From a virus (lineage: Duplodnaviria; Caudoviricetes), in the IMG/VR virus record IMGVR_UViG_3300014613_000021, positions 1-64,000 of that record: DNA of 64,000 bases; one strand, written 5' to 3'. The position numbers and the translations under genes are program-made. This document shows positions 1 through 42,218 of the stretch, in pieces (the stretch's first letter is position 1; every line of letters starts with the position of its first letter). The notes below the pieces were generated by a model, which saw only the letters and a program-made list of their open reading frames with translations, made no database searches and had not been told where the DNA came from.

Positions 1-203
1 TGCTGATTAATCCAATAAGCAAAAAGTCCTGATATATTTTCATTCCCAAGAACTTCTTTACTTATTTCTTTTGCTTGTTGCTGTTGTTCAGCCGTTAAAC
101 TTATGGTTACTTTTTTAGTCTTCATAAATTTTGTTTTACATTTTGCACACATATAATAATTATCAATTTTATACATCATGCTTATCGGGTGTTCACACTT
201 CAT
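1..203 (-). CDS. Small hypothetical protein (runs off the window edge); N-terminal Cys motif then RHH-like segment
   Basis: Manual translation MKCEHPISMMYKIDNYYMCAKCKTKFMKTKKVTISLTAEQQQQAKEISKEVLG...; open to position 1. Confidence 0.45.
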   Translation of the reverse strand, partial: MKCEHPISMMYKIDNYYMCAKCKTKFMKTKKVTISLTAEQQQQAKEISKEVLGNENISGLFAYWINQ

Positions 204-426: not shown

Positions 427-486
427 TTATTTACCGTTTATTTTTCAATTATTTTTTTAGTTAGTTGAATATCAATATAATACAGT

Positions 487-540
487 TGCTAACACGGTAT
501 AAACCACATTAAAACGATGGTTTATACCCATCCGTTAGCA
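487..540 (-). repeat. attC-like recombination site A1 (54 bp)
   Basis: Minus strand TGCTAAC-GGATG-GGTATAAACCA...TGGTTTATACC-GT-GTTAGCA; stop codon of ORF 535-807 is the TAA in R''. Confidence 0.75.
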
Positions 541-807
541 ACAAGCGGAAGAAAGTTCCTGCTTCAATTTGCCAACCTTACGCACGGCATTTTTTTCATT
601 TAATGCCCATATTTTAATTCCATCAATATTAAATTCTTTAAGTCCTTGTTGTTTCTTGCGTTCTAATGCCTTTTGCTTACGCACACGCTCTATTTCTGCA
701 AGTTCTTCGGGAGTTAATTCTTCTCGGTAATTATGTCCACCAAACGAATCAGGCATCATTGCCCCCATCGCTGCAAACATCATCATTAATTGAGCCATTT
801 TTTTCAT
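535..807 (-). CDS. Cassette-borne hypothetical protein (90 aa)
   Basis: ORF bounded by attC A2 and A1; cassette start GTTAGCAAC is the exact complement of its R'' GTTGCTAAC. Confidence 0.75.
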   Translation of the reverse strand: MKKMAQLMMMFAAMGAMMPDSFGGHNYREELTPEELAEIERVRKQKALERKKQQGLKEFNIDGIKIWALNEKNAVRKVGKLKQELSSACC

Positions 808-832
808 AATTAAATTTTGTTAAACCGCCAGT

Positions 833-930
833 TGCTAACAAGCGGTCATAGTTAATAAAGCCAATTAAAGTTCGTGTTTCATAGCAAGCGGTGTGGATGG
901 CTTTACTAACCATACCGCCGGCCGTTAGTT
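833..930 (-). repeat. attC-like recombination site A2 (98 bp)
   Basis: Minus strand AACTAAC-GGCCG-GCGGTATGGTTAGTAAAGCCA...TGGCTTTATTAACTATGACCGC-TT-GTTAGCA; imperfect inverted repeat right after the HNH stop. Confidence 0.75.
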
Positions 931-1533
931 TTATGCACAAATGCTACGTTTGCATTCCATAAGGAAGATTCCCCATTGATTCGCCATAGCTTGTTTCCCT
1001 ATTCTTACAGCCCACTCTTGAAATTCATCTAAACTCATATCGCTTTTTGCATAATTACATATTTTACAACACGAAACAGAGTTTTCTTTAGTGTAATTTT
1101 TTGAGTTATCTATTCTGTCTATACCTGAATAAATAAAACCATCACCTATACTGTTCTTGGTTTTCTTAATATTATTAGGCTTAGAATCACAATAAAAACA
1201 ATTCATCTTAACCAATTTCTCAACGTCTTTTCTTGTTAACTGCCATTTAAAACCACGTCTTTCAGCGTGTCTTTTGTATCCTAAAATTATAGCCGTTATT
1301 TCAGAATGATTTTTTGATATTCGTTTTGACTTTTTTATTTCCTTACTCAAACAACCGCAACTTTTAGTGTTACCGCTTGTCATAGCCGAACCCATAACAA
1401 CCTTTTCCTTTCCACAGTCGCATTTTACCCTATACCATTTTCTCCATCTTTTATCTGATTTAGAAAATTCTAAAACTGTTAAGCGATTGAACTTATCCCC
1501 AGGTCGCAATTCAGGTTTATTATTTTTTGGCAT
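931..1533 (-). CDS. Phage HNH-type (His-Me finger) endonuclease, putative homing endonuclease
   Basis: N-terminal GDKFNRLTV..CDCG..SCGC DNA-binding repeat; CFYC and GIDRIDNSKNY..NSVSCCKICN nuclease motif. Confidence 0.8.
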   Translation of the reverse strand: MPKNNKPELRPGDKFNRLTVLEFSKSDKRWRKWYRVKCDCGKEKVVMGSAMTSGNTKSCGCLSKEIKKSKRISKNHSEITAIILGYKRHAERRGFKWQLTRKDVEKLVKMNCFYCDSKPNNIKKTKNSIGDGFIYSGIDRIDNSKNYTKENSVSCCKICNYAKSDMSLDEFQEWAVRIGKQAMANQWGIFLMECKRSICA

Positions 1534-1548
1534 TGTTAATAATATTAG

Positions 1549-2238
1549 TTATACATATTCAGCAAATATACGGTTTTTCTCTAAAATATGCAACTTATCC
1601 CATTCATCTAATGAATATCCACTTTCCATAAAAGCGGTAAATTGAACTGCAAGGGCTTGTGCAATGCCCGTAAAAGATTTGCTTCTTTCATTTGAATTAT
1701 CCCAAGCCTTCCTAATAGGTAATTTGCTTTTCCTCCTTGTTCCATCTTTTAGCAACCCTCCCCTTGTGCTGTTGCTCGTATAATGCCATTTTGGTTCTAC
1801 AATTTTTGTTGGCAATAAATCCGGCAAGTTTTTTAACCACAAGCACATTCTTTTTTTGAAAGGGTCGCCAAACTGAAAAGGGTTAATTATTTGATTGGGT
1901 TTTCTCCAGTTTGTGTTTAAAAAACCGGTTGGATTTTCAATTGATATGTGTCCACATTTGTTATTCCATATTTTCATCACAAAATCAACTGCCTGTTGTT
2001 GCCTGCCGTCAGCTTGTTTCTGTTTCCAGCTTGGAGCACCCGCCCCAGATAAATGAGTGCAAGGAGGAAAAGCAATTATTGCATGCCAATCATCGTTTAT
2101 GATGTCAAATAAATCCCCTTGATAATGTGGTAATCCTTTCGCTCCCGGAAGCAAATCACAGCTCATAGTATCAAAACCGGCATTTATAAATTGCTCAGTT
2201 ACTATTTGACTTTCCTCACAAGCTATTAGTATTTTCAT
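1549..2238 (-). CDS. DNA cytosine-C5 methyltransferase-like protein (short phage type)
   Basis: MKILIACEES start, catalytic FPPC motif, ENP motif, C-terminal ERSKSFTGIAQA; likely start is the ATG at 2238. Confidence 0.8.
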   Translation of the reverse strand: MKILIACEESQIVTEQFINAGFDTMSCDLLPGAKGLPHYQGDLFDIINDDWHAIIAFPPCTHLSGAGAPSWKQKQADGRQQQAVDFVMKIWNNKCGHISIENPTGFLNTNWRKPNQIINPFQFGDPFKKRMCLWLKNLPDLLPTKIVEPKWHYTSNSTRGGLLKDGTRRKSKLPIRKAWDNSNERSKSFTGIAQALAVQFTAFMESGYSLDEWDKLHILEKNRIFAEYV

Positions 2239-9614: not shown

Positions 9615-9666
9615 AACATTAACTTCTTTTAGTGAAATCTTCTCTTTTCGTGAACTAAATTTTCAT

Positions 9667-9698
9667 TAAAAATATAAAACTTATATTTAACATCCAAA
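9667..9698 (-). promoter_or_regulatory. Bacteroidota-type promoter (TAnnTTTA variant)
   Basis: TTTG-N20-TATTTTTA. Confidence 0.55.
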
Positions 9699-9743
9699 TA
9701 TTTTAACCTTTATTTTTCAAACAAAAATGTAACCTGTTTATTT

Positions 9744-11522: not shown

Positions 11523-12980
11523 TCAAAAATCATTAATAAACACCAATAATTTCCTTGCCCTCGTTATTGCAACATACTTTAAATTATCTTCCTGCCTTAA
11601 CTCCCAATCTTCTGTTGCATATTGACTTGGAATAAGATGAGGACGCAAAATAAAAACAGAATCAGACTCCAACCCTTTGCTCTTATGTATAGTTGACAAA
11701 ACGATTCCTTTGTTACTATCTTCTACAAACATCTTTTCAAGTTCTTTCTTAACTAAATCAAATGATCCAAAATGATTTGCAAGTATCTGTATTATATTTA
11801 TTTTCTCAAACAAACTTATATATCTCGGATGATTTACGTATTTTTTTACGCCTTTCTCCGCAAGTTCTTCTATTAATTCATCCAGATACCTCTTTAAAAC
11901 CCTCATTCCATGCTCAAATGAGCCATTTATTTCCGAAACTAAACTTAACAGGTTCTTTCCTATGTCCTTTCCTTTAATAAAACTTTTCTTTCCTTCCAGT
12001 AAAAATCTTAAATACAACTCAAATAACGGTAAATTATTCCGACAAAGAACAAAATCACCCTCTTTCACTTCCTTATAACTTCCATTTCTTACAACCCCTT
12101 TTTCTTTCTTCTCAGGGCTTTCTATTGTTTCAAATACTCCATTAGCTAAACTAACTATATCAGTTCCGCACCTGTAACAAACAGATAAAGGCAGGGAAAT
12201 CGTATTAGGTTCTCTTTTAAAATCATTGAAGGATTCAGGATTTGCAAAAAGAAATGAATAAATTGTTTGATTTACATCGCCAACAGCAACAAACCTGCCT
12301 CCGGGTTTCATTATCCTTTTTACTATTATCTGCTGAAGTCTATTCAAATCCTGACATTCATCCACAAAAACTTCATCAAATTGAGGTAATTCTATGTCAT
12401 TTCTTGTTGCAGGCAAATAAATCATATCGGTGAAATCAATAAACTTCTGTTCTTCAAAATTCATATTATTATACCTGTTCAGATAATCAAATAATTCAAT
12501 CGAATAACTAAGTTCATTTTCCGTATAATCTATTCCATACATATACGCCTTACTTGCAAGTTCTTGTTTTGATGAACACATTGCCAGCCTGTAAAGGTCA
12601 ACTAATTTACAAACATTATATAATATCTTCCCGTTTTTCTTTACGTCAATTCCCCATTTCTTTACAAACTCAAACGCTGCGCCAAATGTTTTGTTTTCTT
12701 TCAAAACAACCTTTGAATATCTTTTATAAAGTCCTCCTGCACCTATCGAATGAAGTGTTGCTACTTTAACTCCTTTCCGTACCCTATCCTTTAATTCGTT
12801 TACAATCGACTTATTAAAGGCTACAAAAACACAAGTCTTTCCTGCCGGAACAAATTTCAATAATTCCAATATTGTGGTTGTCTTTCCGCTTCCAGGAACG
12901 GCAGATATAACAATGTTTTTGTTTGTTTTACGATAAGTATCAAATATTTGCAATTGATAAATGGAAGGCTTAAAAGACAT
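11523..12980 (-). CDS. Superfamily 1 (UvrD/Rep-like) helicase
   Basis: AVPGSGKT Walker A, VDECQD, STIHKSKGLE, YVAITRAR. Confidence 0.9.
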   Translation of the reverse strand: MSFKPSIYQLQIFDTYRKTNKNIVISAVPGSGKTTTILELLKFVPAGKTCVFVAFNKSIVNELKDRVRKGVKVATLHSIGAGGLYKRYSKVVLKENKTFGAAFEFVKKWGIDVKKNGKILYNVCKLVDLYRLAMCSSKQELASKAYMYGIDYTENELSYSIELFDYLNRYNNMNFEEQKFIDFTDMIYLPATRNDIELPQFDEVFVDECQDLNRLQQIIVKRIMKPGGRFVAVGDVNQTIYSFLFANPESFNDFKREPNTISLPLSVCYRCGTDIVSLANGVFETIESPEKKEKGVVRNGSYKEVKEGDFVLCRNNLPLFELYLRFLLEGKKSFIKGKDIGKNLLSLVSEINGSFEHGMRVLKRYLDELIEELAEKGVKKYVNHPRYISLFEKINIIQILANHFGSFDLVKKELEKMFVEDSNKGIVLSTIHKSKGLESDSVFILRPHLIPSQYATEDWELRQEDNLKYVAITRARKLLVFINDF

Positions 12981-13337: not shown

Positions 13338-13375
13338 AGGGGTTGTGTATATATAATAGTTAGCAACAATATGGG
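13338..13375 (-). repeat. Truncated attC-like site B1 (R'' and left arm only)
   Basis: Minus strand CCCATATTGTTGCTAAC-TATTA-TATATACACAACCCCT; R'' region complements the cassette start at 14400-14416 in 15/17 nt; no right arm found. Confidence 0.6.
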
Positions 13376-13407
13376 CTTAGTTCGTACCTCGTTTGAAAGT
13401 TTGTCGG

Positions 13408-14418
13408 TTAATCCCATAATTTTAAAATATTTTTGCCCTCGCACTTTGGCTTTTTCAAAGCCATTTGGATAGCATCATAGTAAGTAACTCCATTATTTGT
13501 TAGTTCCATTGCTGTTTTATATGCTTTAGGTTCAATTTCTTTTAATCTTTCAAATCTATCATCGTATTGGCAACCAAAACCGCAAACCATACAACCTGTT
13601 TGCGTTTCTCCTTTATCGTAAATTCCACAATAAGGTATTTTGTTTTTTCTTATAAAATCCCATTTATTTTCCTCAGTCCAAATTGATAAAGGATAACTTG
13701 CAATTCTTTTTGTATCAAATGAATTACATCCAGTAACCAAATATTTTTGTTTGCGTAATGTACTCTCATTTACTGATGTTCCGATGATTGGCTTTAATCC
13801 TGTTTCTTTCTCAAATTTAATAGCAGGTTTTTTCTTCAAATAATAGCAACATTTTTCAGATATTTCAAAAGGTGCATTTATTAAGTGTTGCCATTTATTC
13901 GATATTTTACCCTGATATGGTTTATCTGGTCTTCCATTTAATCTTAAATATTTATGCTTTTCGCTTTTCGCATGGCGATATTCTCTCAAATATTGCGATT
14001 GTTCTTTCGATATTAAAGGAAAGCCAAATTTTTCAATTACTTGTTTTAAGTTCATTTCAGGTTGCACCCATTCTATTCCATCTATATTTTTTAAAAACCT
14101 ATACATCTCAGGAAATTCATTTGTAGTGTTGAAAAATATTGCTCTAATATCTTTTTTTATTATCCTTGATAGATATAAAAGTATTGTACTGTCCTTACCT
14201 CCCGAATACGAAACATAAGCAGGATTAACGCCCATAAAAACATCAATAGTTTCAAGAGAATGAAATATCTTTTGTTCAAGCGTCCAACTTAATCTTTTGT
14301 TAAGTTCAGTAGTTGTTATTTTGTTTTCTTTTTTCCCCACCTTAAAATATTTTAAAATTATTACTGTGTTCCTCGTATTAGCATTTATAGTAATTGTCGC
14401 CCATACAGTTGCTAACAC
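13408..14418 (-). CDS. PAPS reductase-family protein, cassette-bounded
   Basis: SYSGGKDST PP-loop, KKKPA, YPLSIW, TGCMVCG; true start may be the downstream GTG (VGKKENK). Confidence 0.85.
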   Translation of the reverse strand: MLATVWATITINANTRNTVIILKYFKVGKKENKITTTELNKRLSWTLEQKIFHSLETIDVFMGVNPAYVSYSGGKDSTILLYLSRIIKKDIRAIFFNTTNEFPEMYRFLKNIDGIEWVQPEMNLKQVIEKFGFPLISKEQSQYLREYRHAKSEKHKYLRLNGRPDKPYQGKISNKWQHLINAPFEISEKCCYYLKKKPAIKFEKETGLKPIIGTSVNESTLRKQKYLVTGCNSFDTKRIASYPLSIWTEENKWDFIRKNKIPYCGIYDKGETQTGCMVCGFGCQYDDRFERLKEIEPKAYKTAMELTNNGVTYYDAIQMALKKPKCEGKNILKLWD

Positions 14419-14469
14419 GTCCTATATGTCATGGCGAAAAGCCACGCCACATAGCCCTATTCGTTGTGT
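14410..14469 (-). repeat. attC-like recombination site B2 (60 bp)
   Basis: Minus strand ACACAAC-GAATAGGG-CTATGTGGCG...CGCCATGACATATAG-GACGT-GTTAGCA. Confidence 0.7.
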
Positions 14470-14475
14470 GCAATA

Positions 14476-14715
14476 CTACCCAGCGTTAATACCAAGTAAC
14501 TTATTAAACTCTTGCATCACTTCTCCATCACCAGTAATCTTATGTATTCTGCTTTGAAGTTGAGTAATATCATTTTCTGTAAAATTACTCTCACTTAAAG
14601 ATTCAATACCTTCTTTTATTCGTTTCATATCGGCAGCCGAATCATATTCTTCCCGTTCTGCTGCGAGTTTCATTGAGCGTGTAAGCTCTGTAATTGCATA
14701 TTCATTTATTCTCAT
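14476..14715 (-). CDS. Cassette-borne small protein with UVR-like coiled motif
   Basis: LAAEREEYDSAADMKRIKE; cassette start GTTGTGTGCA complements its R'' TGCACACAAC exactly (10 nt). Confidence 0.7.
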   Translation of the reverse strand: MRINEYAITELTRSMKLAAEREEYDSAADMKRIKEGIESLSESNFTENDITQLQSRIHKITGDGEVMQEFNKLLGINAG

Positions 14716-14725
14716 ACCGTACTGC

Positions 14726-14856
14726 ACACAACAACAAATATAAATCAGTGGGGTTGCTGGTGTCTTTTTAACCCACGTGCCTTGTAATTAAGTTTGTAGC
14801 GGTTTGAAAGTGCAAGGCTTCAAATCCCCACCGCTTCATATTTTCGACCGTTATAA
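14726..14856 (-). repeat. attC-like recombination site B3 (131 bp)
   Basis: Minus strand TTATAAC-GGTCGA-AAATATGAAGCGGTGGGG...CCCCACTGATTTATATTT-GTT-GTTGTGT. Confidence 0.75.
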
Positions 14857-14985
14857 AACAGTTTGCCCCTTACAAGCTGGACAAACTTCATCAATCAGTG
14901 GGTTACAATTAGGGAATACCCTTCTACCTTTGCCATCACATAGAGGGCAAACCGATCCGTTAAAAATCAGAGCACATTTATTATT
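14851..14985 (-). pseudogene. 5'-truncated DnaJ-type zinc-finger mini-ORF ending in the B3 R'' box
   Basis: Frame KCALIFNGSVCPLCDGKGRRVF...CPACKGQTVL*; two CxxCxG motifs, no canonical start. Confidence 0.55.
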
Positions 14986-14989
14986 TACG

Positions 14990-15550
14990 TTACCTCATGT
15001 ATTTATCAATTCCCGATTTTACCTTTCTTACTCTATTTTTGTCTTTTGCTTTAAAATCCCGTATTGTGTTTAAATCCTTTTTTAATAATTCTTCATTCTC
15101 CTTACTCGTTAAAAGCTTTTCAATAGAAACAACCTCCAAATAAGTTTGTTTAACCTGAGAAACTTCACAAAGAAAAGTTTCGTTATTTCTTACAAACTCG
15201 CTTTTCTCTTTATTCAGAAAACAAATAATTTCTTCTTCTGTTTTTCCAATTAGCCTTTTATATCCCTTTCTTTCATCAAATACTTTCAAAAAATGAATCC
15301 GGACAGGATCTCCTACTTTATATGGTAAAACCTTGTTAATTGGTATAAGTTGTTCCGAAAACTCAGTTTCATTTCCATCGTTCACAATCTCACACACCCA
15401 CTTTTCACCATCTTCAAACCACTTTCCTGCAAGAGTTTTAAAAGACAAAACCTTTCCGTCTCCGGTTTTTCCTGTAAAAATATATTTTCCACTTTTACTT
15501 TCATTTTCGATAACAGTTACCTGAACTGTCTGTTTTTCGCCCGCTTTCAT
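14990..15550 (-). CDS. Hypothetical protein with repeated beta-barrel-like segments
   Basis: ORF track; internal repeat GKT..GKVLSF / GKT..EEIICF. Confidence 0.55.
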   Translation of the reverse strand: MKAGEKQTVQVTVIENESKSGKYIFTGKTGDGKVLSFKTLAGKWFEDGEKWVCEIVNDGNETEFSEQLIPINKVLPYKVGDPVRIHFLKVFDERKGYKRLIGKTEEEIICFLNKEKSEFVRNNETFLCEVSQVKQTYLEVVSIEKLLTSKENEELLKKDLNTIRDFKAKDKNRVRKVKSGIDKYMR

Positions 15551-15556
15551 GGTTTA

Positions 15557-17530
15557 CTATTTATTTAAAAGTTTACTAATCAATTCATTCATTATCTTCA
15601 TTGAATCACCCTCAACAAATTCACCTTTGTTTACTGCATTGGTTATAAACCTCTTTTCTTCAATCAAATCATGTATATCATGGTCAATAGTGTTTTCTCC
15701 TGAAAGATACCACGCCATAACAGAATTATCCTGCCCAATTCTGTGAACCCTGTCTTCCCCCTGATCATGTTCGGCAGGAGTCCATCCGTATTCCAAAAAT
15801 GCCACATTAGATGAAGCTGTTAAAGTTAACCCTACTGAACCGGCTTTTAAATTCAAAACAATGAGTTTTACATTAGGATCATTCTGAAACCTGTCAACTA
15901 CCTTTTGTCTTTCTTCTGCACTAACTGAACCGTCTATTTTATCACAATTAAAAGTTTTAGAAAGTTCATCAATTGTTTCCCTGTGATACGCAAACAAAAC
16001 TAACTTTTCTCCACTTTCAAGAAAATCCTGAACCCATTCAATAGCAGCTTTCATTTTTCCCTTTACTGAAAGTTGCTTTAACATATTGATTTTAACAAGA
16101 TGTTCTGCCCTTTCAGCGGCAGCAGCCCTCTGTTCTCTTTGTGCTTTTCTTGCTTCCCTCTGTTCTTCTTCTGACAAATGACTTATTGATTGCTCAAAAT
16201 CAACAGCTACATTCGATTCATTTCTCAAGTAATTGATAACATCTGCCTCAGCTTTTTTATATTCAGACTGATTCGTTATCGGTAAAGTAATCGAACACCT
16301 TTGTTTTGCAGGAAGTTCCTTTAATACTTCTGATTTATTCCTGCGGATATAACAGGTCGCCCTTAACTTTGTGTGAAGTTCATCCAGATTCTTTGCTCCG
16401 GAAACATCAAGTCCAAAACGTGACCTGTGAGCATCACAATACCTCTGCGCAAACTTCCACCACCCGCCAAATGAATCAAGTTTACTAAGTATTTCAAGTT
16501 GAGACGTTAATTCGATTGGTCTGTTAAGTATTACCGTGCCGGTAAGCATTATCAGATAATCAATTCCCTTTGTTAATTTCCTGACAGCTTCGGTTCTTTG
16601 CGCCTTTCTGGATTTAAGGTAATGGGATTCATCCATGATAATTGCCTTAAACCCCATTTTTCCTAAATTTTCAGACTGTTTCTTTACAATGTCGTAGTTG
16701 ATAACCATTACATCAAAATCATTACTTAAAACAGTATTAGAATCAATGACACAAACTTTATACTGAGTCCATTTCTCAAACTCTCTTTTCCAATTATACT
16801 TTAAAGAGTTTGGGCAGATAACAAGAGTAGGGGTTAAGTTCATGTAACGAATTGAAGCTAATGCCATTACTGTTTTTCCTAAACCCATTTCATCCCCTAT
16901 TATTATCTTCTTGTTCTTGACCGCATACTCAACTCCTACTTTCTGGAAAGGACGCAATACACAGCCTTCATTCAGTCCGGTAACATCAAAGTCTGTATCA
17001 TAACTTCCCGAAAGTTCTATATTCTTACTTACAGATTTCACATAGTCCTCAACTTCTTTTTCTATTTTTTTTATCAATTCAAAAACACCATTATCAATTT
17101 CAAATTCAGGATACTTTGAAATAAAATCCTGAACTTTTTTATATGAAATACGATCTAATACAACCGTCCAGATTTTAGAAATCGGATTAAACTTTTTTCC
17201 GTCAATAAGTTTAATATCATTGATAATTGAAGGATTGTAAGGAAAAAGAAAAGAAAGTCTAATCCCTTCAAGTTTTATCTTATAAGGATTTTCTTTCTTT
17301 CCATTACAGAAAATTTTAATCTTATCCAGTATTTCCTTTTCAACAGGAAATTCAAATTCCTGAAAAAAGTCAAGTGTTGGTTGTGAACTATCTTTTTTCA
17401 GTTCTATTTCCCACAATTTCCTTTCCCCATTCCACCTTCTTCCAGGAATAGTTTTTACTCCGGAAACAATTTGAGGATTGTAATCAAACTGTATTGAAAG
17501 TGTATTGTCGGATAAACTAACTTTTTTCAT
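15557..17530 (-). CDS. SNF2-family helicase with two N-terminal HARP-like domains (SMARCAL1-like annealing helicase)
   Basis: Duplicated F.YNP.I...K.I.G..W/FN motif; GDEMGLGKT, DESH, QGEDRVHRIGQ. Confidence 0.85.
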   Translation of the reverse strand: MKKVSLSDNTLSIQFDYNPQIVSGVKTIPGRRWNGERKLWEIELKKDSSQPTLDFFQEFEFPVEKEILDKIKIFCNGKKENPYKIKLEGIRLSFLFPYNPSIINDIKLIDGKKFNPISKIWTVVLDRISYKKVQDFISKYPEFEIDNGVFELIKKIEKEVEDYVKSVSKNIELSGSYDTDFDVTGLNEGCVLRPFQKVGVEYAVKNKKIIIGDEMGLGKTVMALASIRYMNLTPTLVICPNSLKYNWKREFEKWTQYKVCVIDSNTVLSNDFDVMVINYDIVKKQSENLGKMGFKAIIMDESHYLKSRKAQRTEAVRKLTKGIDYLIMLTGTVILNRPIELTSQLEILSKLDSFGGWWKFAQRYCDAHRSRFGLDVSGAKNLDELHTKLRATCYIRRNKSEVLKELPAKQRCSITLPITNQSEYKKAEADVINYLRNESNVAVDFEQSISHLSEEEQREARKAQREQRAAAAERAEHLVKINMLKQLSVKGKMKAAIEWVQDFLESGEKLVLFAYHRETIDELSKTFNCDKIDGSVSAEERQKVVDRFQNDPNVKLIVLNLKAGSVGLTLTASSNVAFLEYGWTPAEHDQGEDRVHRIGQDNSVMAWYLSGENTIDHDIHDLIEEKRFITNAVNKGEFVEGDSMKIMNELISKLLNK

Positions 17531-18519: not shown

Positions 18520-18645
18520 TTACTGTCTCCTCCCTCTCACGTGTACGTGCGCATGTGCGCCTGCGTTTCTCCCTGTTCTTAACTGTCTATTACTTCTTAC
18601 TGTCTATTAGTGTCTATTATTACTCTTATATCCTATACTGTCCCA
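18520..18645. other. Candidate replication origin: iteron-like A(C/G)TGTCY repeats and an alternating purine/pyrimidine tract
   Basis: Five copies at 18522, 18582, 18599, 18609, 18637; non-coding; just downstream of the putative initiator. Confidence 0.4.
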
Positions 18646-20549: not shown

Positions 20550-20771
20550 TTAATACGAAATTATTTCTTGAATTTCATCAATAAAAATAACATCCCTTGT
20601 GTATTCCCTTCCCGGAACAACAATTGGATGTTTAAGTAAAAATCTGTTTTCAGACAATGCAGAACCAATATACACTTCTTGTCCATATACACTAACTAAA
20701 AGATCAATATCATTTATAATGACACAATGCAAAAAGTTGAATATAGCTTTTTTGTCTGTTATTTTATCCAC
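20550..20771 (-). CDS. Hypothetical protein (GTG start supplied by the 37-bp repeat)
   Basis: ORF track. Confidence 0.5.
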   Translation of the reverse strand: MDKITDKKAIFNFLHCVIINDIDLLVSVYGQEVYIGSALSENRFLLKHPIVVPGREYTRDVIFIDEIQEIISY

Positions 20772-20805
20772 GTTTCATTTTTATTAACAATTATTTAATT
20801 ATATA
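20769..20805 (-). repeat. 37-bp leader repeat, identical to 25474-25510
   Basis: Minus strand TATATAATTAAATAATTGTTAATAAAAATGAAACGTG. Confidence 0.9.
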
Positions 20806-24452: not shown

Positions 24453-24469
24453 TGTTATTATTTATTCAG

Positions 24470-24500
24470 TAAAAATATAAAATTTATATTAAATATCAAA
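24470..24500 (-). promoter_or_regulatory. Bacteroidota-type promoter (TAnnTTTA variant)
   Basis: TTTG-N19-TATTTTTA. Confidence 0.55.
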
Positions 24501-25476
24501 ACAAAATTTCTAAAACTTTTGTTCTTAATTCATCTCTTAATTCCGGGTTGTCTTTTAATAACTCAATCACTGAGATTCTTCCTTGTCCAAGTTTAGTTTT
24601 TCCATAACTAAACCATGAACCGCTTTTTTTTACTATTTCAGCTTCTACACTAATATCCAGTATTTCTCCGCTTTCATCAATTCCCTGGCCAAAGAAAATA
24701 TCAAATTCAGCTTGTTTAAAAGGAGGTGCGACTTTGTTTTTTACAACTTTGACACGAGTTTTATTAGAAACAACTGTTTCTCCGTCCTTATTACTTCCAA
24801 TCCGGCTTACTTCAAGCCTTATCGTTGCATAAAATTTTAAAGCATTTCCTCCGGTTGTTGTCCAGGGATTACCCCAGCTAATTCCAATCTTTTCCCTCAT
24901 CTGGTTTGTAAAGATTATCAGACACTTATTCTTATTAACAACGCCCGTAATTTTACGTAAAGCCTGAGACATTAGTCTTGCATGAAGTCCCATTTTTGAA
25001 TCACCCATTTCTCCATCAATTTCAGCCTTTGGTGTTAATGCTGCGACAGAATCAATGATTATTAACCTTATTTCTCCAGATTTTACTAAATGTTCAACAA
25101 TATTCAATGCCTGATCTCCATCGTCAGGCTGAGAAATTAATAAAGGGTTGTCACCGGTTAATTGAATTCCTAATGCCTTTGCATATTCAACATCTAATGA
25201 GTGTTCAGCGTCAATAAAAACAGCAGAATAACCCATTTTTTGAGTATTGGCGATAGCATGAAGACAAAGGGTTGTCTTTCCTGACGATTCTTGTCCATAT
25301 ATCTCAATAATCCTCCCAAAAGGATACCCCCCGACACCTAAAGCATGGTCAAGAAGCAATGATCCGGATGAAACTATTTCAATATCTTTTTGTGCCTTTG
25401 AATCAGAAGTAATGACAGAAAATTTACCAAAGGCTTTTTCAATATTATCTATTGTTGTTTGTAGTCCTTTTCTCAC
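24496..25476 (-). CDS. recA: RecA recombinase
   Basis: [40 protein letters not shown]. Confidence 0.95.
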
Positions 25477-25510
25477 GTTTCATTTTTATTAACAATTATT
25501 TAATTATATA
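25474..25510 (-). repeat. 37-bp leader repeat supplying the recA GTG start
   Basis: Identical to 20769-20805. Confidence 0.9.
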
Positions 25511-28800: not shown

Positions 28801-28819
28801 TGTTGAGGTAAATTTTTGT

Positions 28820-28850
28820 TAAAGATATATAATTTATATTTATCTACAAA
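28820..28850 (-). promoter_or_regulatory. Bacteroidota-type promoter (TAnnTTTA variant)
   Basis: TTTG-N19-TATCTTTA. Confidence 0.55.
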
Positions 28851-28853
28851 ATT

Positions 28854-31800
28854 TTAATTTAAAATTTCTACTTGTGAGTTATCTTCTGTATAAAGAACGT
28901 TCATGTTCTTATAATCATCATATCCGATTTTTCCGTCTATTATCAAAAGTTTTCCTTTAGCTAAAGACAGTTGTTTTCCGTAATCAGCCCAAGTAATCGG
29001 CCAACAAACAACCCAAATCATTTCATCATTACATTCAATTTGTATTTGCGCAAACTTGCCATTTTTACTGTTTCTTTCAATAAATCCAGAAATAACCCCT
29101 GCAATAATACCTCTTTTGTTTCCTCGTGAATTAAATTCAGAATAAAATTCAATAGGGTCTATTAATTTATTTGCACTTTGTTTGAATATTATAGAGAATT
29201 TAAGAATTACTCTTTTATAATTAAGATAACCAAATCCACATAATTCTTTCTGTCGTAATATCCACCAATATTCTTCATCTATTCTATTATTGTCAGTAAA
29301 AGTATCTTTTCCTTTATCAATTTTAATGCCTACTATTTTTCTGTATTTTTCAATCAAAGAAAGTCTTTCTTGTGGAGTTTTTATGCTTTCTATATTATCA
29401 AAACACCCTGAAAAAATAAGACTTTCGACAACTCTTTTATTGACTTTACTTTTAGGGACCCTTTCATAAAATTCCTTTAGTGAATAAAAATCGCCATTCT
29501 TTTCTCTTTCTTCTACTATTATTGAAACAGCTATATCGCCAACATTTTTTATTTTAGAAAGAGACCAATATATTTTAGCTTGCTCAAAATCAGTATAAAA
29601 ACTTTGTCTTGAATAATTAATATCTGGCGGCAATACTTTAATAAAATCACCTATTTTATTTATCTCACAAATCAATTTTGAAATATTACTTTCTTTTGCG
29701 TACTCTAATGCAACAGTCCAAAACTGAATCGGATATTTATATTTTAACCACTGCCCTATATATCCAGTAATAGCATAAGCGACCGCATGAGAACGATTAA
29801 AAGAATATCCGGCAAACGCTTGTAATTTATTCCATATTTTTTTTACTATTTTTTCTTCATAACCGTTTTCAATAGCCCTGTCAATAAATAATTGTTTGTA
29901 ACTATCAAGTAATGATTGTATTTTTTTTCCCATCGCCTTCCTTATTTCATCTCCTTCGCTAAAAGAAAAATCAGAAAGTATTTGTGTTACTTTGATAGCT
30001 TGCTCCTGATATATATATAAACCATAAGTGTTTTCTGTAACCTCTTTTAACACTTCAAGATCATATTCAGTGTTTTTTCTTCCATGCCTTAAATTAATAT
30101 AGTCAATGTGAGCGTTTGAAATCATTGTTCCCGGTCTGTATAATGAAATCATTGAAATAAGATGCTCCATGTTATCAGGTTTCACATTTAAAGAATAACC
30201 TATCAATCCAGTACTTCCAAAATGATGTATATCCTGATTAAACCCTTTTTGAAACAATTTATAAACTCCTTTATCATTATATTCTAAATTAAAAACATTA
30301 ATTTCTTCTCCTGTTGTTTTCTTTACAAGTTCTGTTATTTCCTTAAATTTATCAAGTTGTTCAAGCGAAAGAAGGTCTTCTTTTAAAAAACCTATTTTAT
30401 CTAAATCACTTCCTTTCCATTCAGAAACTAAATTTCCGTCTTCCATACGAACGGGAATCCAATCAAAAATCTCCATAAAATTATCATCCCCGTCATGTTC
30501 TGGAAAAATAATCATTGCTGACGCATGAACGGATTTATTCCTTACCTGTGATATTATTAATTGAATGGCATTGATTAACTCAAAGTTTTTCCTTATAAAG
30601 TCAGTAAAAACAGGGTTTTTAATAGTATTTTTAAACACATCAATAAAAGTATCTGTTTCCTCCGGCTTTGTCTTTACATCTTTAAAATTAAACACAACAG
30701 ATGCAGGATACCCATAAACACTCGCAAGGTCTTTTAACGCCGCCTTTAATTGAAATGTATTGTTATTTCCCACATAGCAGATATGATTATATCCATATTT
30801 TTGAACCAGGTATTGTTTTACGACATCCCTTTTACCAGCCTCTATATCTATATCAATATCCGGACAACCTTCTTTAATCCTTGCCTCATTTAAAAACCTC
30901 TCAAAAATCAAATCATAATCAAAAGGGTTTATTTTTATTATTCCAAGTAAATATGAAATTAACGACCCTGACGCACTTCCACGACCAATGCCAACGTATA
31001 TATTTTCTTTTTTACAAAATTCAATAACATCCCAAAGAATAAGAAAATAATCAATAAAGCCTCCTCTTATTATTACATCAACTTCTTTTTCTATTCTTTC
31101 ATAATACTTTTCTAAATCCTGTTCTTTTGACAATTTTTCTTCAACCCCTTTCTGAATTAAATTAAAAAATAATTCTTCACTATTTTCACATTTAAACTTT
31201 GGGAGGTGAAGTTTCTTTTCAATTCTAAAATCAACATTATTACTTACCCAATTTGTATTTGAACTGGCTTCAGTAAATATTTCCAATACCTTTTTTTTAT
31301 CTGAAAACAAGGAACTCAATATTTCAAAATTATCATCAAGGTTTTTAAAATATTGATTTTTTGATTCATGCTGAAATCCCACATCACCTATTTTATTAAG
31401 GATTTTCTTGATATAACCGTCTCCTTTATCAAGGTAATAAGAATCATTTATTAAAATAGGCTCTACAAGATTTATATACCTGTCAAAATATTCTTTTAAA
31501 ACCAAAAGACTTTCTTTATCTTTTTCATCTCTTTCCCAAACAACGGTATCTATTTGATAAAAAACTTTTTCAAAATTTCTTTTGAGAATAGGTAAATCAC
31601 TGAAAAACAAATTGTCGCATAAAATAAGAACAAGTCCAGAACTATACTGAATTAAGTCATCAATTGTAACACCTCTTTTTTGAACATTTATAATGCAATT
31701 TAGCCTTAATAAGTTTTTCCACCCCTGATTATTTAAAACATATATTTTTATATTTGCGTTTTCTCCTTTTCTTACAATATTAATGCTCTCTCCTATAACA

Positions 31801-32279
31801 AATTTTATATTTTCTTTCTGACACTGAAACTGTAATTGAAGAACCCCCGCTAATGTATTTTTATCACAAATTCCAACAGTGTCATATCCATAAAACTTAG
31901 CTTTCTTAATCCAATCCGGAAACTTTCTTGAACCATTACAAATGTCATATTCTGAATGAATGCCTAAATAAGAAAATGGTTGCTCAATTTCTTGAACACA
32001 CTTACCTAAATATTTAAACGGATTAACTTCTGGATTCTTTTCTGTTTTAATTGGTGTATAGTAATACTTTCCACCAAATTTGAATAAATAAAAATCTGTT
32101 AAGTCTTCCATTGCTTTTTCAGCCGGAGAAAGAATTAATTCAAACTTATCAGTAAACATTTTTTTCTTATATTCAATTAAAAGAAATTTACCAACACCCT
32201 CAATTTTAAAAACATCTTCTAATTCGGAATTTAACAAACTAAGTTTATTATCAACTATCCATTCACTTAATTCAGTCAT
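28854..32279 (-). CDS. dnaE: DNA polymerase III alpha subunit (family C) with N-terminal extension
   Basis: PHP domain, GRGSASGS, PDIDIDIE catalytic motif, YSFNRSHAVAYA, C-terminal OB fold. Confidence 0.95.
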   Translation of the reverse strand: MTELSEWIVDNKLSLLNSELEDVFKIEGVGKFLLIEYKKKMFTDKFELILSPAEKAMEDLTDFYLFKFGGKYYYTPIKTEKNPEVNPFKYLGKCVQEIEQPFSYLGIHSEYDICNGSRKFPDWIKKAKFYGYDTVGICDKNTLAGVLQLQFQCQKENIKFVIGESINIVRKGENANIKIYVLNNQGWKNLLRLNCIINVQKRGVTIDDLIQYSSGLVLILCDNLFFSDLPILKRNFEKVFYQIDTVVWERDEKDKESLLVLKEYFDRYINLVEPILINDSYYLDKGDGYIKKILNKIGDVGFQHESKNQYFKNLDDNFEILSSLFSDKKKVLEIFTEASSNTNWVSNNVDFRIEKKLHLPKFKCENSEELFFNLIQKGVEEKLSKEQDLEKYYERIEKEVDVIIRGGFIDYFLILWDVIEFCKKENIYVGIGRGSASGSLISYLLGIIKINPFDYDLIFERFLNEARIKEGCPDIDIDIEAGKRDVVKQYLVQKYGYNHICYVGNNNTFQLKAALKDLASVYGYPASVVFNFKDVKTKPEETDTFIDVFKNTIKNPVFTDFIRKNFELINAIQLIISQVRNKSVHASAMIIFPEHDGDDNFMEIFDWIPVRMEDGNLVSEWKGSDLDKIGFLKEDLLSLEQLDKFKEITELVKKTTGEEINVFNLEYNDKGVYKLFQKGFNQDIHHFGSTGLIGYSLNVKPDNMEHLISMISLYRPGTMISNAHIDYINLRHGRKNTEYDLEVLKEVTENTYGLYIYQEQAIKVTQILSDFSFSEGDEIRKAMGKKIQSLLDSYKQLFIDRAIENGYEEKIVKKIWNKLQAFAGYSFNRSHAVAYAITGYIGQWLKYKYPIQFWTVALEYAKESNISKLICEINKIGDFIKVLPPDINYSRQSFYTDFEQAKIYWSLSKIKNVGDIAVSIIVEEREKNGDFYSLKEFYERVPKSKVNKRVVESLIFSGCFDNIESIKTPQERLSLIEKYRKIVGIKIDKGKDTFTDNNRIDEEYWWILRQKELCGFGYLNYKRVILKFSIIFKQSANKLIDPIEFYSEFNSRGNKRGIIAGVISGFIERNSKNGKFAQIQIECNDEMIWVVCWPITWADYGKQLSLAKGKLLIIDGKIGYDDYKNMNVLYTEDNSQVEILN

Positions 32280-37167: not shown

Positions 37168-38532
37168 TCAATAAAAGTTTTCAATCGTTTTCATCCTATC
37201 ATAAAACCTATCATACCGATAATTCTGATAAATTTTAATTGTTTGTCCTGCTTTGAAGTGCCTTAATTTATCCAAATAAATCCTCATCATTCCATCCCTA
37301 TATTCATCTTTTGTTTGATTCAGAGACATCACGAAACTAAATGAATTTGTTAATTCTTTTGTATTTGAAGCATAATGCCTGTCTATAACCCACTCCGGAT
37401 CATTCCATAAAGTTGGAGGCACATCACTTGCTTGTGTAGGGACAGTTACCCTTGTTTGATATTCAACAGCAATATTTTTTAATTTATCGGCAATCGCTTC
37501 CCTTCTTTGCTTTTCATCATTTACACCATATCTTTTGCCGTTTCCGGGATGGGAAATTTTTTCAAGATAATCTATATAAACATCGTCAATCCGGCCATGT
37601 ATTTTGATTAAATCAGAAACAAATAATTTTATATCAAACATTGAAGCAGACTCAAACTGTTCGTAAGCATGAACATAAATATCTGACCCTTTTGCTCTTA
37701 TATCTTTTACTATCTTTTGAAGTTTCTGATATGTTTTATTATGTATATTACCAATTTTTACATCACTCATTAAACAAGCCGTCCAAGTAGCATCATAACC
37801 ATTTAAGCATTCTTGCTCCGAACCTTCCAACTGAACATGAGCAACTAAATTACCTCTCCTTGCCGAATGAACTGCCATGTGTCGGACACATTTCGTTTTA
37901 CCAACCCCTGACCGGGATATTACCAGTGTTGTGTCAGTTACATCTTTCCCTCCATTAGTAATATCATCAATTTCATCAATTCCAAAAGGTATCTTGTGAA
38001 TAAACTTACTTGTTTTTGAATTTATAACTCTTATTTTGTTTCTATTTTCAAAATCACCAAATATTGATTCATAATATTTAGTCCCCTTTTTAATTGAAAA
38101 AGTAGATAGTTTTTCAGAAAATTTATTTAACTCTCCCCTTGCTTTTTCTTTCTCACCCTTACTATAAGTCTCACCAAATTTATAATAAAAGGTTTCTGCC
38201 ATTGCATCTTTTAAAAAATCCTCAAGTGACTCCATTGCAGAATCAACTTCAAGTACATCAGCTTCTTTTATTTTTTCAAGTAATTCAACTGCATCCTGAT
38301 CTTTTTTAACCCTTCTGTCAAAATACTGAGAAATCATACCAATAGTAGGAACTTTCTTCGTTTCACTTATTGAATATTCAGTCTTTATAGCTTTCCAAAT
38401 TTTTTTATATCCCTCGATCGGAAGATAGCTATATTCTAAATGTTCAATTAATATACTGATAACCTTTGAGTTTCTAAAACAAAGTTTAAACAATTCATTA
38501 AGAAAATTATCACTGAGTTTGTTTGAGGCCAT
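37168..38532 (-). CDS. Replicative SF4 (DnaB-like) helicase
   Basis: SRSGVGKT Walker A, QLEG, YIDY Walker B, TQA, LDKLRH. Confidence 0.8.
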   Translation of the reverse strand: MASNKLSDNFLNELFKLCFRNSKVISILIEHLEYSYLPIEGYKKIWKAIKTEYSISETKKVPTIGMISQYFDRRVKKDQDAVELLEKIKEADVLEVDSAMESLEDFLKDAMAETFYYKFGETYSKGEKEKARGELNKFSEKLSTFSIKKGTKYYESIFGDFENRNKIRVINSKTSKFIHKIPFGIDEIDDITNGGKDVTDTTLVISRSGVGKTKCVRHMAVHSARRGNLVAHVQLEGSEQECLNGYDATWTACLMSDVKIGNIHNKTYQKLQKIVKDIRAKGSDIYVHAYEQFESASMFDIKLFVSDLIKIHGRIDDVYIDYLEKISHPGNGKRYGVNDEKQRREAIADKLKNIAVEYQTRVTVPTQASDVPPTLWNDPEWVIDRHYASNTKELTNSFSFVMSLNQTKDEYRDGMMRIYLDKLRHFKAGQTIKIYQNYRYDRFYDRMKTIENFY

Positions 38533-38582
38533 TTATTATAGATAATTCGCTATAAATATAAATAATATATTTTGAAAACCAA

Positions 38583-40984: not shown

Positions 40985-41009
40985 TACCACTGCATATTAG
41001 TTATAAGCC
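40985..41009 (-). repeat. Truncated attC-like site C1 (R'' and short left arm)
   Basis: Minus strand GGCTTATAAC-TAATA-TGCAG; R'' complements the cassette start GTTATAAGCC (41758-41767) exactly. Confidence 0.6.
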
Positions 41010-41783
41010 ATTAGCCCAACGCTCTGTTGCTTCCTTATATATTTCCGTGTCCAATTCGCTTAATATCCATTTTCTATTTAAACTATCTGCCACCTTACCC
41101 GTAGTTCCGCTACCACCAAAGCAATCAAATACAGTCTCGTTTTCATAAGAATAATATCGTATTACATTTTCCGCAAGTTTTTTTGGGAAGGATGCTGTGT
41201 GCCAACTTTTGGTTTCGGGTTGTATTTCCCACACGTTAGTTCGTTCATATTCACCGTTCACAAAGCTGTTATTTTGTAGTACCTTATCAATCAAAAAATT
41301 GGCTTTTTTCTTAAATACAAGTACATATTCTGTAACTATGTTCGGCTTGTATGCTACTGGCTTTCTATGTCTGTAAAACCCACCATTTCTATTCGCTGCT
41401 GCTCCATCAGGTTTCTTCCAAATTATATCTTCCAAAAACTCAAAGCCAATTTTCTCCATCATTGGTACAAAGTAGTAAGGTAATGGTATTCGGTAGCTTT
41501 GTTCACTACGTTTCTGCCTCTTTACAAGTACAGGGCTAATATTAATTACACACATTCTACTTGGTTTTAGCACTCGTTCAATCCCAAAAAAAACTTGCTC
41601 CATTTCGTGCATATAATCCGCTACACTACTATATTGGCTGTATTCTCTTGCATTGTAGTAAGGTGGCGAAGTGAACACTAAGTCTATGCTATTATCATCG
41701 AGTCTATTTATAGTTTCTTTACAGTCCTCATTCCAAAATTCCCCACGCTCAAATAACGGCTTATAACACGTGGTTAACGTCAT
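41001..41783 (-). CDS. Cassette-borne DNA N4C/N6A methyltransferase (beta class)
   Basis: FTSPPY, WHTASFP, FDCFGGSGTT; stop in R''; nearest in-frame ATG lies inside the upstream attC. Confidence 0.85.
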   Translation of the reverse strand: MTLTTCYKPLFERGEFWNEDCKETINRLDDNSIDLVFTSPPYYNAREYSQYSSVADYMHEMEQVFFGIERVLKPSRMCVINISPVLVKRQKRSEQSYRIPLPYYFVPMMEKIGFEFLEDIIWKKPDGAAANRNGGFYRHRKPVAYKPNIVTEYVLVFKKKANFLIDKVLQNNSFVNGEYERTNVWEIQPETKSWHTASFPKKLAENVIRYYSYENETVFDCFGGSGTTGKVADSLNRKWILSELDTEIYKEATERWANGL

Positions 41784-41891
41784 TGCCTTTTTCTTCGTTG
41801 ATAATTTCTTGGTTTTCCATGTTTTGTATTTCAATTAAAGTTTGTACTAAATTTAAGGTCGGCAACGAACGCCAACCGTCAAACATTATAG
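41761..41891 (-). repeat. attC-like recombination site C2 (131 bp)
   Basis: Minus strand CTATAAT-GTTTGAC-GGTTGGCGTTCGTTGCC...GGCAATGACGTTAACC-ACGT-GTTATAA. Confidence 0.7.
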
Positions 41892-42218
41892 CCAATATGA
41901 AATAAACTTACCAGCCATAAATAAAAGTCCGAATATTGCAATTAATCCTATCATTTCAACGCATTTATTTTGGAAGTGCTGTTTAAACGATAGCTTTGAC
42001 CTACTTACACATTTACCTGAATAAGATAAATGTATCCTTATCCAGTAAGTCATTTCAATTGCACTATCAATATTACCTTTGCAAAATTGAATAATCATCC
42101 ATCCTATTTCCCAAAATAAATGCTCAGCCCAGTTAAACATACTGGCTATAATACCGCATAAAACCAATAAAGGTTTCAGTGCATTTCGTAGGTTAGTAAT
42201 TCTATTTAAGTATTTCAT
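41886..42218 (-). CDS. Cassette-borne small membrane protein
   Basis: C-terminal hydrophobic helix; stop in R'' of C2; cassette start ATTATAGCCA complements R'' TGGCTATAAT. Confidence 0.65.
   Translation of the reverse strand: MKYLNRITNLRNALKPLLVLCGIIASMFNWAEHLFWEIGWMIIQFCKGNIDSAIEMTYWIRIHLSYSGKCVSRSKLSFKQHFQNKCVEMIGLIAIFGLLFMAGKFISYWL

Follow-up and report, generated by a model that had tools for sequence, protein, structure and literature searches.

Does the PAPS-reductase-family gene that sits between two helicase genes of a Bacteroidota phage belong to the fixed genome, or is it a cassette that can be exchanged as a unit? The question was raised by an earlier note, which described a 1-kb unit with complementary ends around this gene and a neighbouring cassette, and which inferred a swappable modification or anti-defence module. 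The window analysed here is the first 64,000 nt of an 88-kb record that is about 78% complete. Both inverted repeats are present at the positions the note gave. The first, 13359-13375 (+, GTTAGCAACAATATGGG), pairs with 14400-14416 (reverse complement GTTAGCAACTGTATGGG) at 15/17 positions, or 16/18 with the next base, while the second, 14463-14475, pairs with 14720-14732 at 12/13 positions and brackets a 79-aa ORF (ATG 14715, stop 14478-14476) with 4 nt before the start and 0 nt after the stop. A further inner repeat in the PAPS unit that the note had missed is perfect (18/18 nt, 14361-14344 against 13433-13416). The cluster lies between an SNF2 helicase (15557-17530) and a UvrD helicase (11523-12980), and its features, all on the minus strand, are as follows.

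14850-14966 (-), hairpin Z: TTTTTAAC (14966-14959), a 6-nt spacer, stem GTTTGCCC (14952-14945) pairing with GGGCAAAC (14868-14861), 1 nt, then GTTTTATAAC (14859-14850); its loop holds a zinc-ribbon-like frame without a start codon, and its last 17 nt, CAAACTGTTTTATAACG, recur at about 42282-42266.
14733-14849 (-), hairpin B2: 5' spacer GGTCGA (6 nt), stems 14843-14826 pairing with 14753-14736, and 3' spacer GTT (3 nt); by the family rule described below it belongs to the 79-aa cassette.
14463-14732 (-), the 79-aa unit: 5' arm GTTGTGTGCAGTA (14732-14720), ORF 14715-14476 carrying a weak UVR motif, and 3' arm TATTGCACACAAC (14475-14463).
14417-14462 (-), hairpin B1: 5' spacer GAATAGGG (8 nt), stem CTATGTG pairing with CATATAG around an inner stem-loop, and 3' spacer GACGT (5 nt); the predicted 5' part of the PAPS cassette.
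14399-14416 (-), outer 5' arm of the PAPS unit, GTTAGCAACTGTATGGGC.
14344-14361 (-), inner repeat, 5' copy (ATAATTTTAAAATATTTT), 3 nt (AAG) upstream of the GTG start.
13408-14340 (-), PAPS-reductase-family gene, 310 aa from the GTG start, with the motifs SGGKDS (P-loop), CCYYLKK and GCMVCGFGC.
13416-13433 (-), inner repeat, 3' copy, inside the last codons of the ORF.
13359-13376 (-), outer 3' arm, GCCCATATTGTTGCTAAC; the cassette ends at the C of AAC (13359).
13342-13358 (-), array-end (attI-like) sequence TATTATATATACACAAC.

As the window is AT-rich between genes and contains 1018 inverted pairs of at least 13 nt, chance matching was considered first. Using a plain +1/-2 score, the repeats were not exceptional genome-wide and gene-flanking repeats were no commoner than in mismatched controls. 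This test was replaced with a composition-weighted scan with mismatched-flank controls, in which the five best start/end complementarities among about 110 genes belonged to the PAPS gene, the 79-aa gene, and genes 41886-42218, 535-807 and 41001-41834, five genes in three clusters (control frequencies, 0.0007 to 0.013). The core 9-mer GTTAGCAAC occurs 5 times in 88 kb (expected, 0.32; at most 2 in 300 shuffles), and the unit ends co-fold strongly (ddG -21.6, z -8.2 for PAPS; z -6.0 for the 79-aa unit). Together with the architecture and sequences shared with unrelated genomes, these results contradict a chance origin, which is very improbable. Not every signal was specific, as B1 and B2 are not significantly more stable than shuffles (z -1.5 and -0.8 as DNA), a generic scan for the bare AAC-stem-GTT layout returned about 60 hits per strand, a search with the 14-mer GTGTTAGCAACTGT returned chance hits and a coding repeat, and tRNA and Rfam searches found nothing.

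The units match a large hairpin family of Bacteroidota phages with the layout YAAC, a spacer of n+3, a stem-loop, a spacer of n, then GTT, on the coding strand. In the window, B1 has spacers of 8 and 5 nt, B2 of 6 and 3 nt, and hairpin 485-542 of 5 and 2 nt. Hairpin 485-542 shares its 11-nt loop TCGTTTTAATG and R'' TGCTAACGG with a published site, P12002L_attC1 (Qi et al. 2023, PMC9892861). Among loci fetched from IMG/VR (fetched loci are numbered with the prefix L), 131 of 168 occurrences of the loop have covarying stems of at least 7 bp, and at least 38 more occur, mostly in Bacteroidota genomes or MAGs. The spacer asymmetry is +2 to +4 in 137 of 154 hairpins and flanking ORFs run in the sense of the hairpin 138:21. 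A literature search for the loop sequence found only unrelated primers, and no paper was found that describes the system beyond isolated attC calls.

The arms follow the pattern RTT-N5-Y-AGT / ATT-R-N5-AAY with a G.T at position 11, which all five units of the window show. Across the family, the two arms of one unit match at 9.8 of 17 positions, compared to 6.3 for arms sharing one hairpin and 6.0 for random pairs, such that the start of a cassette matches its own far end and not its hairpin partner. Position 11 is A in 92% of reverse-complemented 3' arms and G in 55% of 5' arms. A transposon with fixed terminal repeats was rejected, as the arms vary and covary pairwise. It is also improbable that the repeats are sites of a DNA invertase flipping single genes for phase-variable modification, although they bracket single genes whose relatives are mostly methyltransferases and invertible DNA is common in Bacteroidota. 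All five units face the same way as the operon, inverted units would put G at position 11 of the reverse-complemented 3' arm (seen in only 1%), and the polymorphisms observed in relatives are insertions and deletions, not inversions.

Those polymorphisms respect the unit ends. L213 and L246, from phages that are 99% identical, differ by a hairpin+gene unit inserted at CTAAC|GG and by a second unit at the array end, L177 and L264 diverge exactly after TTGTTGCTAAC|G, and L165 and L220 carry different arrays on a 95.6%-identical backbone. In L213 compared to L246 the hairpin travels upstream of its gene, so the unit of mobility here probably includes B1 and spans 14462-13359 (1,104 nt rather than 1,058 nt). 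An alternative is that the hairpins and arms are expression signals (terminators, processing sites or mRNA end-pairing) between which genes are shuffled by ordinary or microhomology recombination without a dedicated recombinase, as proposed for the PeSL promoter-terminator cassettes of T4-type phages (PMC2839356, PMC4122927). The coding-strand bias, the conserved G.U-compatible wobbles, the strong pairing of unit ends as RNA, and the position of the inner repeat, which could mask the PAPS start, would also fit an RNA-level role. However, junctions in independent pairs fall exactly at AAC|G with only 5–6 nt shared, neighbouring hairpins are too dissimilar for homologous recombination, arrays abut a tyrosine recombinase gene in many relatives, and the Bacteroidota -7 box TAnnTTTG occurs within 40 nt downstream of only 9 of 137 hairpins, a result on which a PeSL-like promoter reading of the 5' arm was also rejected. 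This alternative is considered unlikely.

PF00589 genes were found in 3 of 5 array-bearing records, with homologues in 13 fetched loci. The gene encodes a small Xer-like tyrosine recombinase (265–281 aa) and lies about 50–90 nt past the array end where its start is mapped (L178, L213, L246, L165 and L220), and downstream of the array in L001. The best NCBIfam matches are XerA/XerC/XerD-like and below cut-off, while the integron integrase model (TIGR02249) scores 150–159 bits against a cut-off of 265, in two stretches that skip the middle of the model, and the IntI-specific segment is lacking. A canonical CALIN, in which true attC sites are exchanged by a bacterial IntI integrase as proposed for phage CALINs (PMC9892861), is therefore an improbable reading, though HattCI called a family member as attC and the site has the AAC/GTT boxes, a two-stem hairpin and the classical own-end complementarity. 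No match exceeded the IntI cut-off in five hairpin-bearing Bacteroidota genomes, and in the published assay P12002L_attC1 was the one of six sites that did not recombine with IntI1; recombination by an integron integrase was not assayed in this study. Compared to the attC definition (a hairpin of about 55–140 nt with R'' RYYYAAC, L'', L', R' GTTRRRY, an unpaired centre and extrahelical bases), the boxes, two stems and unpaired centre are present, but the box consensus is satisfied only in part and a +3 spacer replaces the extrahelical L bases, so that attC identity is left undecided, with neither HattCI nor the IntegronFinder model applied here. Further, an attC lies downstream of its ORF and integron cassettes are read away from the integrase, while these arrays are read towards the recombinase gene.

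In the window, TATTATATATACACA directly after the PAPS 3' arm equals the L178 array end, where the first 15 nt of the array-end sequence are identical to the sequence that follows the last cassette and precedes the recombinase gene. No PF00589 or PF00239 match, and no tyrosine or serine recombinase, was found in the 88-kb record, which is about 78% complete, so that with one element of the array end present and the other absent this feature of the family settles neither way. The MAG contig L342 has the same arms and homologous leader and trailer, including a relic of the PAPS C-terminus, around a different gene of 375 aa. Synteny with relatives lacking the block, a check suggested in advance, was limited by the absence of any close relative: the phage collection gave only a 173-nt match, SNF2 relatives are at most 39% identical, UvrD gave none, and no fetched locus shares two backbone genes with the window, such that no empty site or alternative occupant of this exact locus was seen. 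DNA homology to the 64–70% identical PAPS genes of L001–L003 stops inside the ORF. The note would have been contradicted by a gene that is core and fixed with different flanks in relatives, and on this point the outcome was only partly so, as in L003 the gene sits packed with no cassette signals, whereas in L001 and L181 it lies next to family hairpins.

The predicted protein is a PF01507 PP-loop enzyme (2.3e-22; phrog_424, 1.2e-41) with the SGGKDS motif. Similarity to BrxP (3.9e-14) and SspD (2.1e-8) covers only the P-loop stretch and no dnd, ssp or brx partner genes are nearby, so that membership of the DndC/SspD/BrxP DNA-modification enzymes is not supported. The interpretation in the note thus holds in part: that the cassette is swappable is supported, but a role in DNA modification or anti-defence was not shown and rests on association only, as methyltransferases dominate the cargo of related arrays.

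The best explanation (probability, about 0.7) is that the cluster is the end of a small array of mobile gene cassettes belonging to an integron-like system common in Bacteroidota phages, with the PAPS cassette as its last unit. In this view, a cassette consists of a hairpin, a 5' arm starting GTT, a leader, one gene, a trailer, and a 3' arm ending AAC, and in an excised circle the complementary arms would close a long stem under the hairpin, giving a folded site with two stems and an unpaired spacer 3 nt longer on the AAC side. Cassettes would enter and leave by site-specific exchange within AAC|GG, with the Xer-like enzyme as the likely catalyst in related phages. Here the circle would join ...GTTGCTAAC to GAATAGGG... 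(at the cassette ends, ...TTGTTGCTAAC to GAATAGGGCTATG...), and loss of the unit would join ...GCACACAAC (the end of the 79-aa unit, TATTGCACACAAC) to TATTATATATACAC... As the recombinase gene is absent from the record, the array is orphan or served in trans. The analysis demonstrates the architecture, the covariation, the precise presence/absence junctions in relatives, the adjacency of the recombinase in relatives, the shared array-end sequence and the replacement of cargo within the same cassette ends, while the circular intermediate, folded single-strand recognition, the identity of the acting enzyme and the role of the PAPS-reductase protein are inferences, no circle, excision or recombinase activity having been observed. 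A broader reading, about as likely as not, is that Bacteroidota phages run their own integron-like exchange system, with a dedicated small Xer-like recombinase, a folded two-stem site read in mirror image to attC and reusable ends into which new genes are captured, and with it trade counter-defence genes, the PAPS-reductase cassette being a new DNA- or nucleotide-modifying example.

If the model holds, integron-like cassette exchange is not confined to bacterial IntI integrons, and a second system based on a Xer-like recombinase would operate inside virulent phage genomes and concentrate methyltransferases and other counter-defence genes. That would explain how accessory genes move singly between unrelated Bacteroidota phages and would give a practical way to find new anti-defence genes, by listing what lies between these hairpins. 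The PAPS-reductase cassette is a concrete candidate, as phrog_424 is very common in phages and has no established role, and the recurrence of the same cassette ends around different genes also points to how new cargo is captured.

Among known systems, integron cassettes and CALINs, including those reported in virulent phages (PMC9892861), share arrays of mostly single-gene units separated by imperfect hairpins with AAC...GTT boxes at the base, a central unpaired spacer and a second stem, own-end complementarity, exchange next to the AAC/GTT box, addition of new units at a fixed site beside a tyrosine recombinase gene, and methyltransferases as common cargo. They differ in that the recombinase here is Xer-like rather than IntI and is absent from this record, the hairpin lies upstream of its gene with the array read towards the recombinase, the basal stem is 12–18 bp with a fixed G.T at position 11, the spacer is 3 nt longer on the AAC side, many hairpins share a conserved loop, and the published member did not recombine with IntI1. 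In the pdif (XerC/XerD) modules of Acinetobacter plasmids (PMC7399989, PMC13141974), discrete gene modules are likewise bracketed by inversely oriented Xer-type sites and shuffled between replicons, and the arms here (TTAT-N4-AGT / ATT-N4-ATAA) resemble by eye, without a formal test, a XerD-type arm such as TTATGTTAAAT, with the TTAT end facing the spacer; however, there are no 28-bp sites with a 6-nt centre on both sides (the spacing is 6 nt on one side and 3 nt on the other), the inner stems are not Xer arms, and a dedicated recombinase gene sits beside the arrays. CTX-phi-type elements integrate as folded single strands using host XerCD, and similarly a folded hairpin with an unequal, unpaired centre would serve here as substrate of a Xer-family enzyme, though those are whole phage genomes integrating at dif and not gene cassettes inside a phage genome. 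Lastly, in PeSL cassettes (PMC2839356, PMC4122927) small accessory genes in phage hyperplastic regions are flanked by repeated stem-loop motifs and are gained or lost between close relatives, but PeSLs are conserved promoter-terminator sequences thought to recombine by homology, while here the hairpins differ in sequence, the junctions are exact, the promoter motif is mostly absent, and a recombinase is linked.

The window is the first 64 kb of an 88.4-kb IMG/VR virus record that is about 78% complete, has a GC content of about 32%, and carries nearly all of its genes on the minus strand. Read on this coding strand, the region containing the PAPS-reductase-family gene comprises, in order:

17530-15557 (minus strand), an SNF2 helicase
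15550-14990 (minus strand), a 186-aa ORF
14851-14994 (minus strand), a zinc-ribbon-like frame (CxxC...CxxC, 47 codons) without an ATG, GTG or TTG start
14715-14476 (minus strand), a 79-aa ORF
14340-13408 (minus strand), the PAPS-reductase-family gene, from a GTG start
13266-12970 (minus strand), a 98-aa ORF
12980-11523 (minus strand), a UvrD helicase
next in order, ribonucleotide reductase

The observation in the earlier note holds, as both inverted repeats that it had named are present where it placed them, with 16/18 positions paired around the PAPS gene and 12/13 around the 79-aa gene. The PAPS unit also has an inner, perfect 18-nt repeat, with one copy 3 nt before the start codon and the other in the last codons. 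The zinc-ribbon-like frame lies in the loop of a 100-nt hairpin of the same family, and so may be a decayed cassette or a gene with an unusual start.

With plain scoring, gene-flanking inverted repeats were no commoner than repeats between mismatched flanks. With composition-weighted scoring over about 110 genes, however, the five best start/end complementarities belonged to the PAPS gene, the 79-aa gene, and genes 41886-42218, 535-807 and 41001-41834 (control frequencies, 0.0007 to 0.013), and these five genes sit in three small clusters. The 9-mer core of the PAPS arms occurs five times in 88 kb (0.32 expected), always at gene borders. As RNA, the unit ends co-fold far better than shuffled sequences (z = -8.2 for PAPS; z = -6.0 for the 79-aa unit).

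The two further clusters (clusters A and C; window 485-1554 and 41000-42376) follow the same rules as the PAPS cluster (cluster B). Their cargo consists of a C5 methyltransferase, a 200-aa ORF that had first been called HNH but that has no Pfam match, a 90-aa gene, an N6/N4-type methyltransferase and a 110-aa gene. Two methyltransferase ends share TATAAC/TAATAT (here and below, a slash marks the junction), with no hairpin after it. Clusters B and C both start at the same 17 nt, CAAACTGTTTTATAACG (window 14853-14869 and about 42266-42282, minus strand), which end two otherwise unrelated small ORFs (both reading ...QTVL followed by a stop) and are each followed at once by a different hairpin.

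On the coding strand each unit consists of a 5' arm starting GTT (once ATT), the gene, and a 3' arm ending AAC (once AAT), with a hairpin between units. Aligned from GTT, the five 5' arms share RTT-R-N4-C-N-G-T, and in all five units position 11 is G in the 5' arm and T in the 3' arm, a G.T wobble on the coding strand only. The spacer between AAC and the stem is 3 nt longer than the spacer between the stem and GTT (8/5 for B1, the hairpin preceding the PAPS arm; 6/3 for B2, the hairpin preceding the 79-aa unit; 5/2 for hairpin 485-542), though spacer lengths depend on how stems are delimited and B1 and B2 are weak hairpins by energy. Arms that share one hairpin pair only through the conserved positions, while arms of the same gene pair throughout.

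Other repeats in the window include two families of repeated upstream sequences, of three copies (2259-2295, 20769-20805 and 25474-25510) and four copies (9653-9699, 24456-24502, 28806-28852 and 43898-43944), which are probably phage promoters or leaders. The first family ends in ATGAAACG, possibly a shared start. Further, three close copies of TAATAGACA(C/G)T lie in a 205-nt gap upstream of the RNase H gene (18560-18640, minus strand), followed by a GC-rich palindrome (GCGCACATGCGCAC), and look like iterons.

Outside this genome, hairpin 485-542 has the same 11-nt loop (TCGTTTTAATG) and the same R'' (TGCTAACGG) as "P12002L_attC1" of Polaribacter phage P12002L, a site published as a HattCI-predicted attC in a phage CALIN (PMC9892861). 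In P12002L the same layout, including the gene-specific complementarity of the arms, surrounds the methyltransferases gp35, gp36, gp38 and gp54 and the Mom-like gp53. The phage has many more family hairpins and arm pairs (29974-32278 and 37200-39252) than the two attC sites published, and no integrase is annotated in this complete genome.

A pattern built on the loop found more than 119 viral loci, in which 131 of 168 loop occurrences have stems of at least 7 bp that covary freely, and at least 38 further copies occur, mostly in Bacteroidota genomes or MAGs. The loop TCGTTTTAATG is invariant in about 130 hairpins of the fetched loci L165-L403 while the stems covary, suggesting a sequence-specific contact, whereas other hairpins of the same arrays have long, unrelated loops. 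Over 170 hairpins, the 5' spacer was longer by 2-4 nt in 137 of the 154 that could be measured and shorter in only one, and the hairpin lay in the sense of the flanking ORFs 138:21 upstream and 125:38 downstream. In other genomes, the arm after one hairpin matched the arm before the next hairpin at 9.8 of 17 positions, compared to 6.3 for arms sharing a hairpin and 6.0 for random pairs, and short units reached 16-18 of 20. Position 11 was A in 92% of reverse-complemented 3' arms and G in 55% of 5' arms. Neighboring ORFs were small (median near 90 aa), and among those with a Pfam match DNA methyltransferases dominated (N6_N4, n = 12; Dam, n = 3; MT-A70, n = 3; C5, n = 2; D12, n = 1), alongside one PAPS reductase, one Acb2/Tad1-like protein and one UVR-motif protein.

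Comparison of closely related array-bearing loci provided evidence of movement. L213 and L246 are 99% identical, but L213 carries an extra hairpin, 5' arm, 85-aa gene and 3' arm inserted exactly between ...CACCTAAC and GGCTGC..., with AACGG as the only shared junction bases, and L246 carries another extra unit inserted after ...TTTCTAAC/G at the very end of the array. L177 and L264 (99.8% identical) diverge exactly after ...TTGTTGCTAAC/G. L165 and L220 share a 95.6%-identical backbone but hold different arrays, both ending ...ATAAC/TAGATTATATC... So the mobile unit is the hairpin plus the gene downstream of it, and exchange falls within AAC/GG, which on the opposite strand reads CCG/TT and is compatible with the classical G/TT crossover, but with the gene in mirror orientation. 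A circle of such a unit, which is inferred and was not observed, would join its own 3' arm to its hairpin and 5' arm to give a fully paired two-stem site, and this explains the gene-specific complementarity.

No tyrosine or serine recombinase was found in the 88-kb record. An ORF that runs off the contig end downstream of cluster A (window 1-192, minus strand; MMYKIDNYYMCAKCKTKF...) is not similar to the Xer-like recombinases of related arrays. In contrast, a tyrosine recombinase homologue (265-281 aa where full length) is present in three of five array-bearing phage records and in 13 fetched loci. Its gene starts about 50-90 nt after the last cassette, in the same orientation, in L178, L165, L220, L213 and L246, and a homologue also lies downstream of the PAPS cassette array of L001, though the link of the recombinase to the arrays is by adjacency only. 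The enzyme is Xer-like, with a best match to the XerA-type model (194 bits; cut-off, 220), and on the IntI model it scores 150-159 bits (cut-off, 265), in two stretches that skip the IntI-specific segment. Five hairpin-bearing Bacteroidota genomes had no match above the IntI cut-off.

By the family rule the PAPS cassette spans 14462-13359 (1,104 nt) and consists of hairpin B1, outer arm, leader with the inner repeat, gene, trailer and outer arm. Directly after its AAC comes TATTATATATACACA, which is identical over 15 nt to the sequence that follows the last cassette and precedes the recombinase gene in L178, and is close to the corresponding sequences of loci L280 and L224. The PAPS cassette therefore occupies the position next to the docking site, where L246 shows a fresh insertion. 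Here a 98-aa ORF follows instead of the recombinase gene.

L342, a 2.5-kb Bacteroidota MAG contig, has arms identical to those of the window's unit 535-807, and a leader (72% over 81 nt) and trailer (69% over 121 nt) homologous to those of the PAPS unit, with the inner repeat included and matching changes on both sides. Its gene (923-2047), however, encodes an unrelated 375-aa protein with a CX3CX2C motif (radical-SAM-like spacing) and no Pfam or PADLOC match. The L342 trailer still reads ...LKKPKRAGK..., like the PAPS C-terminus ALKKPKCEGK (and ALKKPMCGG in L001), and is therefore a relic of a replaced PAPS gene. Three other cassettes (L165, L220 and L213) likewise share ends but carry different genes, with paired changes in the arms.

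PAPS genes 64-70% identical occur in loci L001-L003 among unrelated neighbors. The earlier note had named a core gene, fixed with different flanks in relatives, as the finding that would speak against a cassette, and on this point the loci differed. In L001 the gene is followed by a family hairpin (spacers of 6 and 3 nt) and a distant PAPS gene in L181 sits just after one, but in L003 the gene is packed with no signals, beside a C5 methyltransferase. As no relative of this particular phage was available for the synteny comparison that the note had also suggested, mobility of this exact cassette is inferred from the family and from L342. The PAPS protein is a PF01507 PP-loop enzyme (phrog_424) with SGGKDS and conserved cysteine motifs, and its similarity to BrxP, SspD and solved structures covers only short stretches of the PP-loop/PAPS-reductase fold. 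A role in DNA or nucleotide modification against host defence is plausible from the company it keeps, about as likely as not, but nothing here shows it. Overall, the note's interpretation of a swappable modification or anti-defence module is supported in part, for exchange of the cassette but not for the function of its product.

The system works like an integron, but departs from one in the integrase, in the orientation of site and gene, and in details of the site. In the literature searched, only Qi et al. 2023 (PMC9892861) was found, which reports isolated attC predictions, and the one published member did not recombine with IntI1. The nearest mechanistic relatives are pdif modules and CTX-phi-type Xer exploitation, and the nearest ecological ones are PeSL cassettes.
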